40,000 nt of DNA from Zooshikella sp. RANM57 (GTDB lineage Bacteria > Pseudomonadota > Gammaproteobacteria > Pseudomonadales > Zooshikellaceae): assembly GCF_050749885.1 (NCBI RefSeq), contig NZ_JBOIUB010000011.1:22118-62117 (forward strand), read 5' to 3'. The notes beneath the pieces were generated by a model. That model searched no databases, was not told where the DNA came from, and saw only the letters and a program-made list of their open reading frames with translations. Shown one piece after another: positions 1-6,572 of the stretch. The translations under genes and the position numbers were made by a program. The stretch's first letter is position 1, and each line of letters begins with the position of its first letter.

Positions 1-105
1 TCACGAAAAATATCTCAAAAACAAATTACACTACAAAATCGATATTAGTTTAGAACAAAAAATAATAAAACTAGATAAGGTAAAAGAAAGAAAAGAACAT
101 GGTTT

Positions 106-465
106 TTGATTGCTATGGCATATAAGCTAAATAAATACACAGTACTAACGCTAATAACGATACATGTGCTTACTGGTTGTAGCACTGGACCAACAGGTGT
201 ACTTGAAAAATCAATACGCACTTTTGATAAAGAAGAAGGTATTGTTACTCTTTCGGGTAAAATGCCTAAAGAGTTTAAGAAAGTTGTTTTCAAAAATAGT
301 TTTCTAACCAAAAGTTCAGCATGTTTGAAAAGTAGCGATATTAAAAACAATGGCTATGATGATTACCGAGAGATTTGGTATGACTACACTCCCAAAATAG
401 ACAGTAGTGGTCAATTTTACATCTCTATTTTAATAAAATTTAATTTATTATCCGAAACTGCGTAG
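106..465 (+). CDS. hypothetical lipoprotein
   Basis: The N-terminus MAYKLNKYTVLTLITIHVLTG|C shows a signal peptide with lipobox LTGC. The track start at 106 is TTG; the ATG at 115 is more likely. No family recognised. Confidence 0.45.
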   Translation: MIAMAYKLNKYTVLTLITIHVLTGCSTGPTGVLEKSIRTFDKEEGIVTLSGKMPKEFKKVVFKNSFLTKSSACLKSSDIKNNGYDDYREIWYDYTPKIDSSGQFYISILIKFNLLSETA

Positions 466-491
466 CACCAATTCTGAAGGAATAATATTTA

Positions 492-1196
492 ATGACAAAA
501 GCTAAATTCTCAAATTTGCTCATTTTTTTTGTGAAATTAGTCGTTATTTCTGGCTGTACATTGCAACACTATAAGTCCAACCTTACAGGACTTGCTATCA
601 CTCCACCTACAGAATCATACTGCATACCTCGTCAAGAGCTAGATAGCAGCTATTTTGATACAGACAAAATAGATATCAATAATTCAAATACACATGATAG
701 AAATGTATATGCTATAGTTGCTTTTTCAGAAAAGTTAGAATCTATACTCGGCAATAGTGGCCCTTTTCCTGTTGTCAACACTTCTTACAATGGCATTAAG
801 AGAAGTCATGGCTTCCCATTCATTTTTTTATACTCGATAATTACTGAAGATGGAAAAAGGGTTTACATAAATAATCCTAATGACACCTATAAAATGAGCA
901 ACATATCATTTTATGAATATATGGTACCTATACCGCTACTTGATGAAATTAACACTCAACATATAAATAAATACACATTCAACATAAGCAATAAGTACCA
1001 AGGTTTTCTAGTGTATAAAAAAGAAACTGATTTTATAAGCATTAATTCTTATGACATAAAATACCTATTAAACCATGGCAGTTTTTTAAAGCATAACGAA
1101 AGCAACAAGCCTATATATAAGCCTAACTGCAGAAATGTTGTTCCATTTCCACATTTCTTTCTAGATGAAGATACGGGCATGGAAGGAGTATTATAG
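492..1196 (+). CDS. hypothetical lipoprotein
   Basis: AAGGA lies ~10 nt upstream of the ATG. The N-terminus ...FFVKLVVISG|CT has a lipobox. The ORF is Asn/Tyr/Ile-rich and very AT-rich. No family recognised. Confidence 0.5.
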   Translation: MTKAKFSNLLIFFVKLVVISGCTLQHYKSNLTGLAITPPTESYCIPRQELDSSYFDTDKIDINNSNTHDRNVYAIVAFSEKLESILGNSGPFPVVNTSYNGIKRSHGFPFIFLYSIITEDGKRVYINNPNDTYKMSNISFYEYMVPIPLLDEINTQHINKYTFNISNKYQGFLVYKKETDFISINSYDIKYLLNHGSFLKHNESNKPIYKPNCRNVVPFPHFFLDEDTGMEGVL

Positions 1197-1491
1197 GTTA
1201 ATATTTATGTTACTCATATACACGTTATTTACTTTATTTTTTTCTTGCTTATCCCTAATTTTTTATACCCATCCACCAGGTATGAGTCATACAGGTATTA
1301 AGCTATTTTTTCCTCTTATTCTGTTGACGGTGAACGTTTTCGTGCTTGTAGCTGTTAAGCTTGCATCATTAGAATTAAAACCTGATAGCGCCACTTTTCA
1401 TAAGTTTTATTGGGTATGGTGGATAGGTACAATTACTTACTTATTCATTCTTTATGATCAACAAGAAGACATTAAGTATATCTTCATGTAG
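1165..1491 (+). CDS. hypothetical small integral membrane protein
   Basis: Several hydrophobic helices (LLIYTLFTLFFSCLSLIFY, LFFPLILLTVNVFVLVAV, WVWWIGTITYLFILY). The start is uncertain: ATG 1165 overlaps the upstream gene, and ATG 1207 is an alternative. Confidence 0.4.
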   Translation: MKIRAWKEYYRLIFMLLIYTLFTLFFSCLSLIFYTHPPGMSHTGIKLFFPLILLTVNVFVLVAVKLASLELKPDSATFHKFYWVWWIGTITYLFILYDQQEDIKYIFM

Positions 1492-1840
1492 TTAATAGTC
1501 TAATTAGTAACAACATCATATACTTTACTTTTTATTTTAAGCACCGTTTCTAAAATGAATTGCTTGGGTATGTTGCCGAACACCAAAAGCTAAAAACCTG
1601 ATTCTTCCTCTTCATTCTGATACACAGGCTATGAATGACCTGTCTACATACCTATTAACGTTATGTGCTACAGATAACTGACTCAGTTAAGGCATAACTT
1701 ACCGACTAGAGTTATGCTCAGTAGCCATAATATCTACACCTTGTTGTCAAAACCCTAATGGTTATTTTTTGTTACTAAATTCTCAATTTAATTTTTTTCC
1801 TGATGACTCCCTACTTTTATTAGGGATAATGTTGCCTGTA

Positions 1841-1863
1841 ATTTGAAATGTTAGATTTCAAAT
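1841..1863. promoter_or_regulatory. perfect 9-bp inverted repeat ATTTGAAAT-N5-ATTTCAAAT abutting the leader-peptide SD
   Basis: Read directly from the sequence. It ends 1 nt before the AGGTGA Shine-Dalgarno of the tnaC-like ORF. It could be an operator or a 5'-leader hairpin. Confidence 0.3.
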
Positions 1864-1873
1864 AGGTGATAAT

Positions 1874-1948
1874 ATGAATCAGTACAATAATTCTAGTATC
1901 TGGTATATTCACGATTACAAAATTGCCTTCTTCTTTCCTTGTAAGTAA
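1874..1948 (+). CDS. tnaC: TnaC-like tryptophanase operon leader peptide (24 aa: MNQYNNSSIWYIHDYKIAFFFPCK)
   Basis: AGGTGA SD lies 4 nt upstream. The ORF has W10-x3-D14-x7-P22, the same spacing as E. coli TnaC W12/D16/P24. The local match is WYIHDYKI versus E. coli WFNIDNKI. It sits 272 nt upstream of tnaA and is followed by a C-rich, G-poor tract. Confidence 0.6.
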   Translation: MNQYNNSSIWYIHDYKIAFFFPCK

Positions 1949-2220
1949 TCCCTCCTGACCTTACATATATTGTTTTTAATTCCTTCATTAACTAATTTTC
2001 TTCTTCGTTTCTGAGAAGCAGATTGGCTGATAATTTCATATTCAACAAAGTTATTAAAGACAATATTTATATAAATTTAATTGCAATTAAATCCAGAAAT
2101 AGTTTTGGATAGGATTTTTTTGACTTTTAAAAATTAGTTTGTGGTAACGATTACTAATCCGAATGTTATGGAAAAGATAATTTAGTTACTGCTTAACTCT
2201 TTTATACTAGGAATAACTTC

Positions 2221-3642
2221 GTGGATAATTTTAAACACCTTCCTGAACCCTTTCGTATTCGTGTTATTGAACCCGTAAAACGTACTACTCAAGCATATCG
2301 AGAACAGGCTATTTTACAGGCTGGTATGAATCCCTTTCTGTTAGATAGCAAAGATGTTTTCATTGATTTACTGACTGACAGTGGTACAGGTGCAATAACC
2401 CAGGAAATGCAGGCCGCTATGTTTTTAGGTGATGAAGCCTATAGTGGTAGCCGCAGCTACTATGCGCTCGCTGATTCAGTAAAAGATATTTTTGGTTACG
2501 AGTACACGATTCCTACACATCAGGGCCGTGGTGCAGAGCAAATTTATATCCCAGTATTAATTAAGAAACGAGAAAAAGAAAAGGGTTTAGATCGCGCTAA
2601 AATGGTGGCGATTTCAAACTATTTTTTCGATACTACTCAGGGTCATACCCAGCTAAATTCTTGTGTTGCCAGAAACGCTTATACCAAAGAAGCATTTGAT
2701 ACTTCAGTCAATGCTGATTTTAAAGGTAATTTTGATCTGGAGAAACTTGAACATGCAATTCTTGAAGCAGGTCCTGAGAATGTGCCATACATTGTTAGCA
2801 CCATCACTTGCAACTCTGCTGGAGGACAACCTGTTTCGATTGCTAATCTCAAAGCGGTATATGAGATAGCACAACGTTACGATATTCCCGTTGTTATGGA
2901 CTCAGCCCGTTTTGCTGAAAACGCTTATTTTATTCAACAACGCGAACCCGGTTATCAAGACTGGACTATTGAAGCGATCACTTTTGAAAGCTACAAATAC
3001 GCTGATGCGTTAGCCATGTCCGCTAAAAAAGATGCCATGGTACAAATGGGCGGTTTGCTTTGCTTTAAAGATGATTCTCTGCTGGATGTGTATAACGAGT
3101 GCCGTACTTTATGTGTTGTTCAAGAAGGCTTCCCAACTTACGGCGGGTTGGAAGGCGGCGCAATGGAACGTTTAGCGGTTGGTTTGTATGATGGTATGCG
3201 TCAAGAATGGCTTGCCTATCGAATCAGGCAAGTACAGTATCTTGTTAATGGTTTAGAAGCCATTGGGGTTATTTGTCAACAAGCAGGTGGCCACGCTGCC
3301 TTTGTCGATGCCGGTAAACTTTTACCTCATATCCCATCTGACCAGTTTCCAGCCCATGCATTAGCGTGTGAGCTATATAAAGTGGCAGGCATTCGAGCCG
3401 TTGAAATTGGCTCATTATTACTTGGTCGTGATCCAGTGACAGGTAAGCAGCACCCATGCCCAGCAGAGTTACTTCGTTTAACCATTCCCCGTGCAACTTA
3501 TACACAAACGCATATGGATTTTATTATTGAGGCCTTTGAAAAAGTAAAAGAAAACGCAGCAAAGGTTAAAGGTTTAGATTTTACCTATGAGCCTGAAGTT
3601 CTGCGTCATTTCACTGCGCGCCTGAAAGAAGTTGAGGATTAA
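2221..3642 (+). CDS. tnaA: tryptophanase (tryptophan indole-lyase)
   Basis: 473 aa with a GTG start. Long stretches are identical to E. coli TnaA as I recall it ([52 protein letters not shown] with the PLP lysine, [22 protein letters not shown]). Confidence 0.97.
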
Positions 3643-3656
3643 ATTCAATGATAAAT

Positions 3657-3681
3657 GCAGCCTATTTAGGCTGCGTATTTT
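3657..3681 (+). terminator. hairpin GCAGCCT-ATTT-AGGCTGC followed by GTATTTT, between tnaA and the permease gene
   Basis: 7-bp GC-rich stem plus a T-rich tail, 15 nt after the tnaA stop. Probably a partial terminator or mRNA stabiliser inside the operon. Confidence 0.4.
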
Positions 3682-3755
3682 AAAGCCTCTCATACCTTAG
3701 AAAAATATCGACAAAAAATTAAATACTTAATTATAAAGATAAAGAGAATATAATA

Positions 3756-4970
3756 ATGAATACTAAGCCCTCCCTACTCGGTGGGTCCTGCATCATCGCA
3801 AGTGTCTGTGTAGGCGCTGGCATGTTAGGACTACCCAGTGCTGGCGCAGGTGCATGGACAATTTGGTCTTTGCTTGCCATCACTTTAACCATGATTGTTA
3901 TGACTATCTCTAGCTGGATGTTACTTGAAGCATTCAAGCATTATGATTTAAAAGTCTCATTTAATACCGTAACAAAAAACATGTTGGGAGATAAAATCAA
4001 CATGTTCAATAATTTAGCCGTGTATTTTGTGGGTGGCATTTTGCTTTATGCCTACATCACTTCTTCAGGCTTGATTTTGCAAGAAATACTCAATATTAAT
4101 AGCAAAATCGCTTCAGTTTTATTTGTTATTCTATTTTCGAGTTTTGTATGGCACTCTACACGCGCGGTTGACCGTATTTCAGTCGTTCTTATCGCTTTTA
4201 TGGTACTCAGCTTTATATTTGGTGTGTCTGGACTTACCTTAAGTGTAGATATGTCTGTTTTGTTTGATACCATTAATCAAGAAGCTGAATATGCGCCTTA
4301 TGCGCTCGCCATGTTTCCCGTCGCGCTCACTTCATTTGGTTACCACCACTCCGTCGCGTCCATGCGTGCCTATTATGGAGAGGAGCGACGAGCCAAGTAT
4401 GCCATATTTGGAGGAACTATAATTGCACTTGGGCTTTATTTTCTTTGGATATTCTGTATTTTTGGTAACTTACCACGAAGTGACTTCAGTCCTATTATTG
4501 AGCAAGGTGGAAATGTTGATGCTTTGCTTGGCGCATTAGGTTCCGTGATCGAATCAGAAAAAGTAGCTAAAGCAATTAACGCATTTTCCATGGCCGCTAT
4601 TCTGTCATCATTTATTGGTGTGGGTTTGGGTGTATTTGACTTTTTAGCTGATTGCTTTAAATTTGAAGATTGCAAACGCGGTCGAACAAAAACATGGTTT
4701 GTAACATTTATACCTCCTTTGATTTTGTCTCTGTTATTTCCTTTTGGTTTCGTAACAGCAATTGGTTATGCGGGAGGTATTGCAACCATTTGGACATGTA
4801 TTATACCCGCACTGCTGGCGAAAAAGTCACGCACTATGAAATCAGGTAATGAAGGATTTATCGTCTCAGGAGGCTCTTTCATTCTCACATTCGTTTTTTT
4901 ATTTGGTGTATTTATCGCTGCATTCCATTTTTTGGCAATGGCAGGCATGTTACCCATTTTTACAGGCTAA
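3756..4970 (+). CDS. tnaB: aromatic amino acid (tryptophan) permease, TnaB/Mtr/TyrP (HAAAP) family
   Basis: 404 aa with ~11 TM helices. Alignable with E. coli TnaB/Mtr (e.g. FGYHHSV, GNLPRSDF..IIEQGGNVD, GVGLGVFDFLAD). Positioned directly after tnaA. Confidence 0.8.
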   Translation: MNTKPSLLGGSCIIASVCVGAGMLGLPSAGAGAWTIWSLLAITLTMIVMTISSWMLLEAFKHYDLKVSFNTVTKNMLGDKINMFNNLAVYFVGGILLYAYITSSGLILQEILNINSKIASVLFVILFSSFVWHSTRAVDRISVVLIAFMVLSFIFGVSGLTLSVDMSVLFDTINQEAEYAPYALAMFPVALTSFGYHHSVASMRAYYGEERRAKYAIFGGTIIALGLYFLWIFCIFGNLPRSDFSPIIEQGGNVDALLGALGSVIESEKVAKAINAFSMAAILSSFIGVGLGVFDFLADCFKFEDCKRGRTKTWFVTFIPPLILSLLFPFGFVTAIGYAGGIATIWTCIIPALLAKKSRTMKSGNEGFIVSGGSFILTFVFLFGVFIAAFHFLAMAGMLPIFTG

Positions 4971-5012
4971 CCCGAAAAATGATTCGCGAATAATATAAAT
5001 GAGGAATATTAA

Positions 5013-5393
5013 ATGACAGCAATTAAAACATCTCAAGCTCCAGAAGCGATTGGCCCTTATGTACAAGGTGTCAGTTTTGCCAATATGGTGATTACCTCAG
5101 GACAATTACCTTTAGATCCAATAACCAAAAAAATGTCCGATGATGTGGCCGAGCAAACAACCCAATCGTTAAATAATGCATTAGCGATTATTAAAGAAGC
5201 GGGCTTGAATGCGGGCAATATCATGAAAACAACCGTCTTTGTGAAAGACTTGAACGAATTTTCATTGATTAATGCAGCCTACGAAGCTTTCTTTCAAGCA
5301 CATAATGCATCATTTCCTGCTCGCTCATGTATAGAAGTGGCACGGTTACCGATGGATGCTAAAGTTGAAATTGAAGTGATCGCCGTACGTTAG
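5013..5393 (+). CDS. ridA: RidA/YjgF-family reactive enamine/imine deaminase
   Basis: 126 aa with a GAGGA RBS. Close match to E. coli RidA (APEAIGPYVQGV, ITSGQLP, KTTVFVKDLNEF, FPARSCIEVARLP, EIEVIAVR). Confidence 0.9.
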   Translation: MTAIKTSQAPEAIGPYVQGVSFANMVITSGQLPLDPITKKMSDDVAEQTTQSLNNALAIIKEAGLNAGNIMKTTVFVKDLNEFSLINAAYEAFFQAHNASFPARSCIEVARLPMDAKVEIEVIAVR

Positions 5394-5409
5394 GTTCTAA
5401 CAACGTTTA

Positions 5410-5450
5410 TAAGGGCACCTCTAAAATGCTTTTTTTTAGAAGTGCCCTTA
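5410..5450. repeat. palindromic repeat element copy A (TAAGGGCACCTCTAAAA-TGCTTTT-TTTTAGAAGTGCCCTTA)
   Basis: 16-bp arms with 1 mismatch, 17 nt after the ridA stop. It may double as a terminator. It belongs to the same family as copies at 13419, 15855, 20866 and 22678. Confidence 0.7.
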
Positions 5451-5813
5451 AATTTATTTATTTTATATACCTACTAAAACACCTTTACTACCTGTATAAC
5501 AACTACGTATTTTCTACTTATATTTTTGTTTATCATTCATACGTAAATCATAGCATATTCACTCATACACCCAATAAATCCAGGTTAACTCTTATAATCG
5601 CATGAATTCGACTATCATTAACTTTAGACTTTAGTATAATACCCATCTATTCAGCTATTGTATTATAATAAAAACCATGATTCTCATTAAACCCTGAAAA
5701 TGCTGCAATGTAAGTATTACACACACTTTTAAACGTATTTATTTGTATAAATTATATCCATTACTTTTATAAATAGTGTACTTACAATCTTCGCATGTCA
5801 TTTTAAGCTAACC

Positions 5814-6572
5814 TTGCTGGGGCCTGTTAACACTATTCGTGATATGAACAAGATACTTGAACAAGCAGAGAAACTTAAACAAATTAAGTCAATAGAAGCA
5901 CTAACACTGCATTGCAATGAAATTATGGATAGCCTGGATATTGATTATTATATCTTTCGCTATTACCCGCCATTACAATTGACAGAAGATGACATGCTTT
6001 CTTTTGGCAACTATCCAGAACAATGGATTGACTATTACGATATTAATGAATTGGTTAAAATTGATCCAATCCATCTTCATTGTAAAAGCCACAGTACTCC
6101 TATATTTTGGCAAGAAGCTAAGAAAATTAAGCAATTCAATGCAAGTGAACACCGCCAAGTTATGACGTTAGCAGAAAGCGCTGGCCTTAAAGATGGTATA
6201 ACAATACCTGTTCATGGCCTGCGCAGAGGGGTTGCTTTTCTAAGTACTGCTTTTCATAGAACGATATCCATTGAGAAGGAAATTCGCAATATCGCTAATA
6301 TTCAATGGATTACACCATTTATCTATGAAGCCGTTAATCGGATAGAATTAAGTAATTCACAAAATAAAACGGTGCTTTCAAAGCGAGAAAAAGAATGCCT
6401 AGCGTGGGCCAGTAGTGGTAAAACATCATGGGAGATCTCTCAAATATTAGGGGTTTCTGAAAGAACCGTTAACTTTCATTTAACAAATGCAACACAAAAA
6501 ACCAATTCATCGAATAGAATACAAGCAATAGCACGCTCAATTATCCACGGAATTATTGAACCAATGTACTAA
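5814..6572 (+). CDS. luxR: LuxR-family AHL-responsive transcriptional regulator
   Basis: The autoinducer-binding domain hallmarks are present (W..Y......DP...........W: EQWIDYYDINELVKIDP...IFW). The C-terminal GerE HTH is present (LSKREKECLAWASSGKTSWEISQILGVSERTVNFHL). The track start is TTG; the ATG at 5844 is an alternative. Confidence 0.9.
   Translation: MLGPVNTIRDMNKILEQAEKLKQIKSIEALTLHCNEIMDSLDIDYYIFRYYPPLQLTEDDMLSFGNYPEQWIDYYDINELVKIDPIHLHCKSHSTPIFWQEAKKIKQFNASEHRQVMTLAESAGLKDGITIPVHGLRRGVAFLSTAFHRTISIEKEIRNIANIQWITPFIYEAVNRIELSNSQNKTVLSKREKECLAWASSGKTSWEISQILGVSERTVNFHLTNATQKTNSSNRIQAIARSIIHGIIEPMY

Follow-up and report, generated by a model that had tools for sequence, protein, structure and literature searches.

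A probable TnaC leader of the tryptophanase operon in Zooshikella: family membership, a likely Vibrionaceae-like origin and a proposed tryptophan arrest

The 24-codon open reading frame at positions 1874-1948 of the window (the whole 40,000-nt stretch of DNA analysed here) is very probably tnaC, the regulatory leader of a tnaC-tnaA-permease-ridA operon that most likely has a Vibrionaceae-like origin and would act through tryptophan-dependent ribosome arrest and Rho. There is nothing new in its identity: judged by its family match, this is a TnaC leader of the ordinary kind and one that is already catalogued, and importance beyond correct annotation is small. What is added here is descriptive, namely a conserved 5′ hairpin, a CRP-like site, codons after the arrest proline as the rule, and variant leaders. 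The leader and the genes that it precedes are laid out as follows.

1864-1869, + strand: Shine-Dalgarno sequence of tnaC, AGGTGA, 4 nt 5′ of the ATG; AGGTG or AGGT is kept in related leaders
1874-1948, + strand: tnaC, 24-codon leader peptide gene with a TAA stop (TIGR02616; the only above-cutoff match in the genome)
2209-2212, + strand: Shine-Dalgarno sequence of tnaA, AGGA, 8 nt 5′ of the GTG, kept in all three Zooshikella species
2221-3642, + strand: tnaA, tryptophanase, 473 aa (TIGR02617, 971 bits against a cutoff of 825.8; PF01212 match)
3756-4970, + strand: aromatic amino acid (Trp) permease gene in the tnaB position (PF03222, E 6e-129; TIGR00837, 431 bits)
5013-5393, + strand: RidA-family gene appended to the operon (PF01042, E 8e-40)

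Much of this had been proposed by a sequence-only reading, which saw a TnaC-like leader in the frame, with its AGGTGA, the pattern W-x3-D-x7-P (W10, D14 and P22), Cys-Lys after the Pro and a spacer of 272 nt before tnaA (1949-2220); all of these are present in the sequence, and the assignment is supported by the family model, by position in a tnaC-tnaA-permease series and by conservation. The key residues of the peptide are W10, D14, K16, I17, F21 and P22, followed by Cys-Lys-TAA. Alignment to the TnaC family, which the same reading had suggested as a check, gave a match to the curated NCBIfam model TIGR02616 (tnaC_leader, equivalog) of 33 bits (E 4e-8) against a cutoff of 23.55 bits, running over model positions 1-22 of 22. 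When all six frames of the 6.2-Mb genome were searched with this model, tnaC (30.7 bits) was the sole match above cutoff. The context, too, is that by which a TnaC leader is recognized, with tnaC, tnaA and the permease gene in order on one strand and tnaC having its own Shine-Dalgarno sequence; the start codon of tnaA is the GTG at 2221, and the match of the 3756-4970 product to the Trp permease model PRK10483 is under cutoff. The exact peptide sequence is already in NCBI's protein collection.

Other searches of the leader were empty. A Pfam scan of the 24-aa peptide returned no family at E up to 1; the relevant Pfam model is presumably PF08053, whose presence in the library copy scanned is unconfirmed, and short Pfam models derived from enteric leaders tend to miss those of the Vibrio type. 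Scanning positions 1-6000 against Rfam at E up to 1 gave nothing relevant (one chance miRNA match at 0.48), and phmmer of the peptide against PDB chains, in which an alignment with E. coli TnaC was sought, gave none at E up to 10, the peptide being too short for it.

Conservation carries the case for a translated product. Frames with W-x3-D-x7-P were sought in the 900 nt 5′ of tnaA at 80 related loci and in the window (81 in all), and such a leader was found at 51 of the 81, lying 145-482 nt before tnaA. Both other Zooshikella species have it 5′ of tnaA, and it recurs with little change in Vibrio, Photobacterium, Grimontia and Aeromonas; Z. harenae has the identical peptide, and that of Z. ganghwensis differs at 5 residues, with 3 synonymous changes besides. 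Among the 42 distinct DNA versions of the core, W, D and P are invariant, as the search pattern itself dictates, and outside that pattern Lys at D+2 and Phe directly before Pro are likewise invariant in all 42, with Ile or Leu at D+3 in 41. Mean entropy over these 42 core sequences is 0.44, 0.46 and 1.06 at the first, second and third codon positions, the third thus being about 2.4 times the first and second, and at the invariant K, F, D and P the codon varies synonymously. Invariant residues combined with synonymous variation imply purifying selection on the translated peptide: as far as this comparison reaches, it is the peptide sequence, beyond the RNA alone, that is under selection.

Leaders of other kinds occur as well. 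In the Vibrio splendidus/chagasii group, W-x3-D is kept and Ser takes the place of the arrest Pro (...AWYTLDHQLSFHLSSE-stop), as at L036:2565-2654 (V. chagasii) and 16 more loci (for example L023, L025, L027, L030, L039, L044, L049, L051, L053, L055 and L069). This type scores 19.2 bits with TIGR02616, under the cutoff, and is a Pro-less TnaC relative. A third type (...LAWYTHDYQISILPSFAHA) has its Pro at D+7, one residue nearer the Asp, with 5-6 codons after it, and is seen at L047:2645-2746 (V. anguillarum) and at L020, L031, L034, L045, L052, L057, L059, L060, L062, L064, L070 and L071. The L047 leader, the sole one of its type searched, gave no TIGR02616 match at E up to 10, and leaders of this type are therefore probably unannotated.

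Upstream of the leader, the region has a putative activator site, a predicted promoter and an inverted repeat that adjoins the Shine-Dalgarno sequence.

1770-1785, + strand: CRP-like dyad TGTTA-N6-TCTCA, agreeing with TGTGA-N6-TCACA at 8 of 10 positions, 96.5 nt before the ATG
1803-1830, + strand: sigma-70-like promoter, ATGACT, 16-nt spacer, GATAAT (9 of 12 matches)
1841-1863, + strand: perfect 9-bp inverted repeat with a 5-nt loop, a predicted mRNA 5′ hairpin adjoining the tnaC Shine-Dalgarno sequence

The promoter score (9 of 12) is by itself not above shuffle expectation; the -10 element GATAAT (1825-1830) is conserved in both other Zooshikella species, and transcription would start at about 1837-1840. 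A second promoter reading, TTGAAA (1845-1850) with GATAAT (1868-1873), would start transcription inside tnaC, and was rejected on its -10, which is not kept (GAAAGT in Z. harenae, GATGGT in Z. ganghwensis). The CRP-like dyad is centred about -60 to -62 from the predicted start, a class I activator position. The motif recurs 94.5-102 nt 5′ of the tnaC start codon, as TGTTA-N6-TCTCA in Z. harenae, several Vibrio and a Photobacterium, and with TCCCA as its right half in the two Aeromonas loci. Catabolite control is known for the E. coli tna operon (PMC8429421), and CRP binding at 1770-1785, predicted from the motif, would fit control of that type.

The working of the leader may be envisioned by analogy with the characterised systems. 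In E. coli, W12, D16, K18, I19 and P24 form a Trp-binding state of the ribosome, and the Rho/rut logic has been described (PMC3902921, PMC8429421); in P. vulgaris (W20, D24, L27, P32), Trp blocks peptide transfer from tRNA-Pro to Lys-tRNA at K33 (PMC3902921). The Zooshikella counterparts of the five E. coli residues are W10, D14, K16, I17 and P22, and from this likeness we infer Trp binding, arrest, an arrest position at Pro22 and a role of Rho in Zooshikella. Transcription would set out from about 1837-1840 at a catabolite-activated promoter, and a ribosome would translate tnaC. At high free L-tryptophan, the nascent peptide and the exit tunnel would jointly bind Trp through W10, D14, K16 and I17, with F21-P22 at the peptidyl-transferase centre, and the ribosome would then stall, its P site occupied by peptidyl-tRNA-Pro. 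Because the Pro is followed by a Cys codon and no stop, what is blocked would be the next peptide bond, in the manner of P. vulgaris, rather than release. The stalled ribosome would mask the final codons together with the beginning of the unstructured, G-poor tract 3′ of the stop; Rho could then not load, and RNA polymerase could pass the 272-nt spacer into tnaA. At low Trp the ribosome would finish and depart, Rho would load, and transcription would be halted in the spacer.

The likeness to Proteus vulgaris had been remarked in the sequence-only reading and is apt. Sense codons after the Pro are no peculiarity of this locus, since 49 of the 51 leaders have them: 46 carry one or two such codons and 3 carry five or seven, while the other 2 end with the Pro. 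A layout like that of Proteus, in which the frame runs on past the arrest Pro, is the common form, and that of E. coli the exception.

Downstream of the leader, the spacer holds a candidate Rho-loading site and a small hairpin.

1949-2011, + strand: G-poor, pyrimidine-rich, unstructured tract, a putative rut site (composition, fold and conservation)
2091-2121, + strand: small hairpin (2091-2110), then 4 nt, then U7 (2115-2121); -6.9 kcal/mol, z-score -0.9

The tract had been called strongly C-rich and G-poor. That count, 16 C against 3 G, is exact for the 63 nt after the tnaC stop (A12 C16 G3 T32); the better description is G-poor and T-rich with more C than G, C making up 25% of it and 21% of the window. 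Of the 63-nt segments on the same strand, 2.5% have at least 13 more C than G. By C/G ratio over 78 nt, the segment starting at the stop lies at the 86th percentile, and the strongest skew, at the 99th percentile, belongs to the segment starting at 1930, inside tnaC. There are 13 YC dimers in 80 nt at the tract, and the minimum free energy of the 63 nt is 0 kcal/mol. C outnumbers G in the same place at 44 of the 51 related loci, or for 21 of 25 when distinct peptides are counted, and in most of the 51 a pyrimidine tract (TCCCT..., TTCCT..., CTCTC...) lies directly 3′ of the leader stop. Among the three Zooshikella species the first 35 nt or so past the stop are conserved and the rest of the spacer is not. 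The genome has rho (717 bits), and a terminator scan called no intrinsic terminator in the tnaC-tnaA spacer. Taken together, the tract would fit a rut site partly covered by a ribosome at Pro22, in a scheme of Rho-dependent attenuation.

Elsewhere the spacer varies. In Z. harenae it measures 397 nt, against 272 nt here, with a G+C-rich insertion of about 125 nt (L001:488-614) that belongs to a dispersed, MITE-like repeat family; one copy lies at 14753-14875 of the window, and the window's genome has at least 47 full or partial matches, the best 19 of them at 84-96% identity. That a mobile repeat sits inside this spacer implies that it is not tightly constrained. In many Vibrionaceae leaders the pyrimidine tract is immediately followed by a conserved hairpin rich in G+C (GCGCAC...GTGCGC type), which the Zooshikella leaders are without; it falls within the first 40 nt after the tnaC stop at L004, L005, L008-L013, L015, L018, L022, L050, L056, L061 and L066.

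Several other readings of these elements have to be weighed. The frame is short and lacks a Pfam match, as would a chance or decayed frame without function, a reading to which we give next to no credence: the frame is the sole above-cutoff TIGR02616 match in its genome, its peptide is identical in Z. harenae and kept through 3 synonymous changes in Z. ganghwensis, and its critical residues are invariant over 42 distinct DNA sequences that vary mostly in third positions. Less lopsided is the case of the inverted repeat at 1841-1863, whose perfect 9-bp pairing next to the Shine-Dalgarno sequence had been pointed out before and is indeed there, the arms ATTTGAAAT (1841-1849) and ATTTCAAAT (1855-1863) being perfect reverse complements (-6.6 kcal/mol, z-score -1.6 as RNA). 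Sixteen leaders, from Zooshikella, Vibrio (V. cholerae, V. mimicus and V. metoecus among them), Grimontia and Enterovibrio, have the same helix, TTTGAAAT-N5/6-(A)TTTCAAAT, with AGGTG or AGGT on its 3′ side. Its pairing is kept in 93.8% of cells across these 16 and in 19-65% if the partner columns are shifted by 1-3; on this conservation the repeat is no chance feature. It might be a DNA operator for a dimeric regulator just 3′ of the transcription start and not an RNA hairpin, which would suit half-sites (TTTGAAAT / ATTTCAAA) that are highly conserved around a varying centre, as in protein-binding palindromes, and a covariation test that, over the 16 leaders, did not rise above shuffles. The latter result is put down to a helix sequence that is too conserved, and the helix itself has many G-U pairs: the outer pair is G-U in 13 of 16 and the inner one U-G in 8, substitutions under which an RNA helix survives and a DNA palindrome does not, and three Grimontia leaders show one compensatory UA-to-CG pair. 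Where this helix would lie, other Vibrio leaders (L005, L008 and L011) form hairpins of another sequence, a point in favour of RNA, and no regulator is known for such a site; an operator is on the unlikely side. As RNA, the helix would lie at the very 5′ end of the mRNA, given the conserved -10 at 1825-1830 and a start at about 1837-1840, and is read here as a 5′-terminal stem-loop that would stabilise the mRNA or position the Shine-Dalgarno sequence. If regulatory, it could set the rate of tnaC translation or mRNA half-life, or serve as a factor site; that this undescribed, Vibrio-type hairpin is a regulatory element in its own right, tuning the Trp threshold of the attenuator beside TnaC and Rho, seems to us unlikely.

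With the frame read as tnaC and the repeat as a 5′ stem-loop, the output of the arrest is what remains to be weighed. Trp arrest could be real and yet act through something other than Rho antitermination, be it pausing or intrinsic termination at 2091-2121, mRNA stability, or refolding that frees the tnaA start. The spacer does offer material for this: the block GGAT-(1-2 nt)-GGAT-(1 nt)-TTTTTGAC is kept in Z. ganghwensis, with another stem sequence, and occurs together with the hairpin, which with its U7 may be a pause point or a weak terminator; the post-stop pyrimidine tract (UCCCUCCU) resembles an anti-Shine-Dalgarno sequence. Yet the hairpin is weak, its U-run stands 4 nt away and it escaped the terminator scan, and both characterised systems, E. 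coli and P. vulgaris, use Rho. A non-Rho output in place of antitermination is thus quite improbable, while a weak hairpin with U7 in the spacer leaves room for a Rho-independent contribution. A direct translational switch was also considered; the fold of the whole leader does not pair the post-stop tract with the tnaA Shine-Dalgarno sequence, 253 nt further on, and so does not support it.

The same operon bears on how such control regions travel. The host had been judged non-enteric from the DNA alone, and rightly so: the genome is that of a Zooshikella, a genus usually placed in the order Oceanospirillales. TnaA shares 97% identity with its counterpart in Zooshikella harenae and 92% with the one in Z. 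ganghwensis, and outside the genus it is 88-91% identical to the proteins of Photobacterium, Vibrio, Grimontia and Aeromonas. Of 41 genomes searched within the genus, its family and its order, only the three of Zooshikella had a tnaA above cutoff. This distribution, along with some 90% identity to Vibrionaceae proteins, points to acquisition by Zooshikella, and the operon, with its leader and promoter region, most likely came from a Vibrionaceae-like source. Activator site, promoter, 5′ hairpin, leader peptide and G-poor tract, the entire region of TnaC control, would then move with tnaA between gammaproteobacterial orders.

For Zooshikella the prediction is that free tryptophan induces indole production, under catabolite control as well. 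A literature search on indole production in Zooshikella yielded nothing usable. A quorum-sensing locus of the acyl-homoserine-lactone type directly downstream may give this prediction some relevance. The RidA-family gene (5013-5393) is followed by a LuxR-type regulator gene (5814-6572), and the RidA-family product plausibly disposes of 2-aminoacrylate released by tryptophanase. The same genome has a second tryptophanase-like gene (G000:C6:47127-48497; L085:1492-2877; 461 aa) that scores 728.7 bits with TIGR02617, under the cutoff of 825.8, and is without a TnaC-like leader; one other Zooshikella has it intact, and in the third two stops interrupt the copy. The 342-aa gene 5′ of it we take, by eye, to be holA.

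Among known leaders, that of Vibrio cholerae is a close counterpart. A V. cholerae study lists a "tryptophan leader peptide tnaC", and a short transcript of the tnaC region was detected (PMC3136459). NCBI and UniRef give the exact V. cholerae peptide the name "tryptophanase leader peptide"; it has 23 aa, about the length of the Zooshikella peptide, and lies upstream of VCA0161 tnaA. Common to the two are an N-terminal side ...NNSSIW and a DYKIAFFFP core, an AGGTGA Shine-Dalgarno sequence with a TTTGAAAT-N5-ATTTCAAAT hairpin before it, a TGTTA-N6-TCTCA site some 95 nt upstream and, past the TAA stop, the pyrimidine tract TCCCT, and both pass TIGR02616 (45.3 bits in V. cholerae, 33 bits in Zooshikella). 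They differ in what follows the Pro (one codon, Ala, in V. cholerae; two, Cys-Lys, in Zooshikella), in the residues between W and D (FTL against YIH) and in spacer length (472 nt against 272 nt), and the G+C-rich hairpin past the pyrimidine tract of many Vibrio loci is absent in Zooshikella.

With P. vulgaris TnaC (W20, D24, L27, P32, then Lys codons), Zooshikella shares the W-x3-D-x7-P spacing and the sense codons after Pro, so that arrest would be expected at elongation, with the next aminoacyl-tRNA, and not at release. Phe also precedes Pro in the P. vulgaris peptide. The Zooshikella peptide is shorter on its N-terminal side (24 codons, with W at 10 against 20), the A-site codon at arrest would be Cys where P. 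vulgaris has Lys, and the residue at D+3 is I in place of L.

E. coli TnaC (24 aa; W12, D16, K18, I19, P24-UGA) has the same length and the same relative positions of W, D, K, I and P, and both systems run in the order tnaC-tnaA-permease, with a spacer of some hundreds of nt and, past the stop, a tract poor in G, at which Rho loads in E. coli (PMC8429421). In E. coli, Pro is the last codon and RF2-mediated release is blocked, whereas in Zooshikella codons follow the Pro; the residue before Pro is Arg in the former and Phe (F21) in the latter. Unlike that of E. coli, the Zooshikella operon has ridA appended and resides in a marine host.
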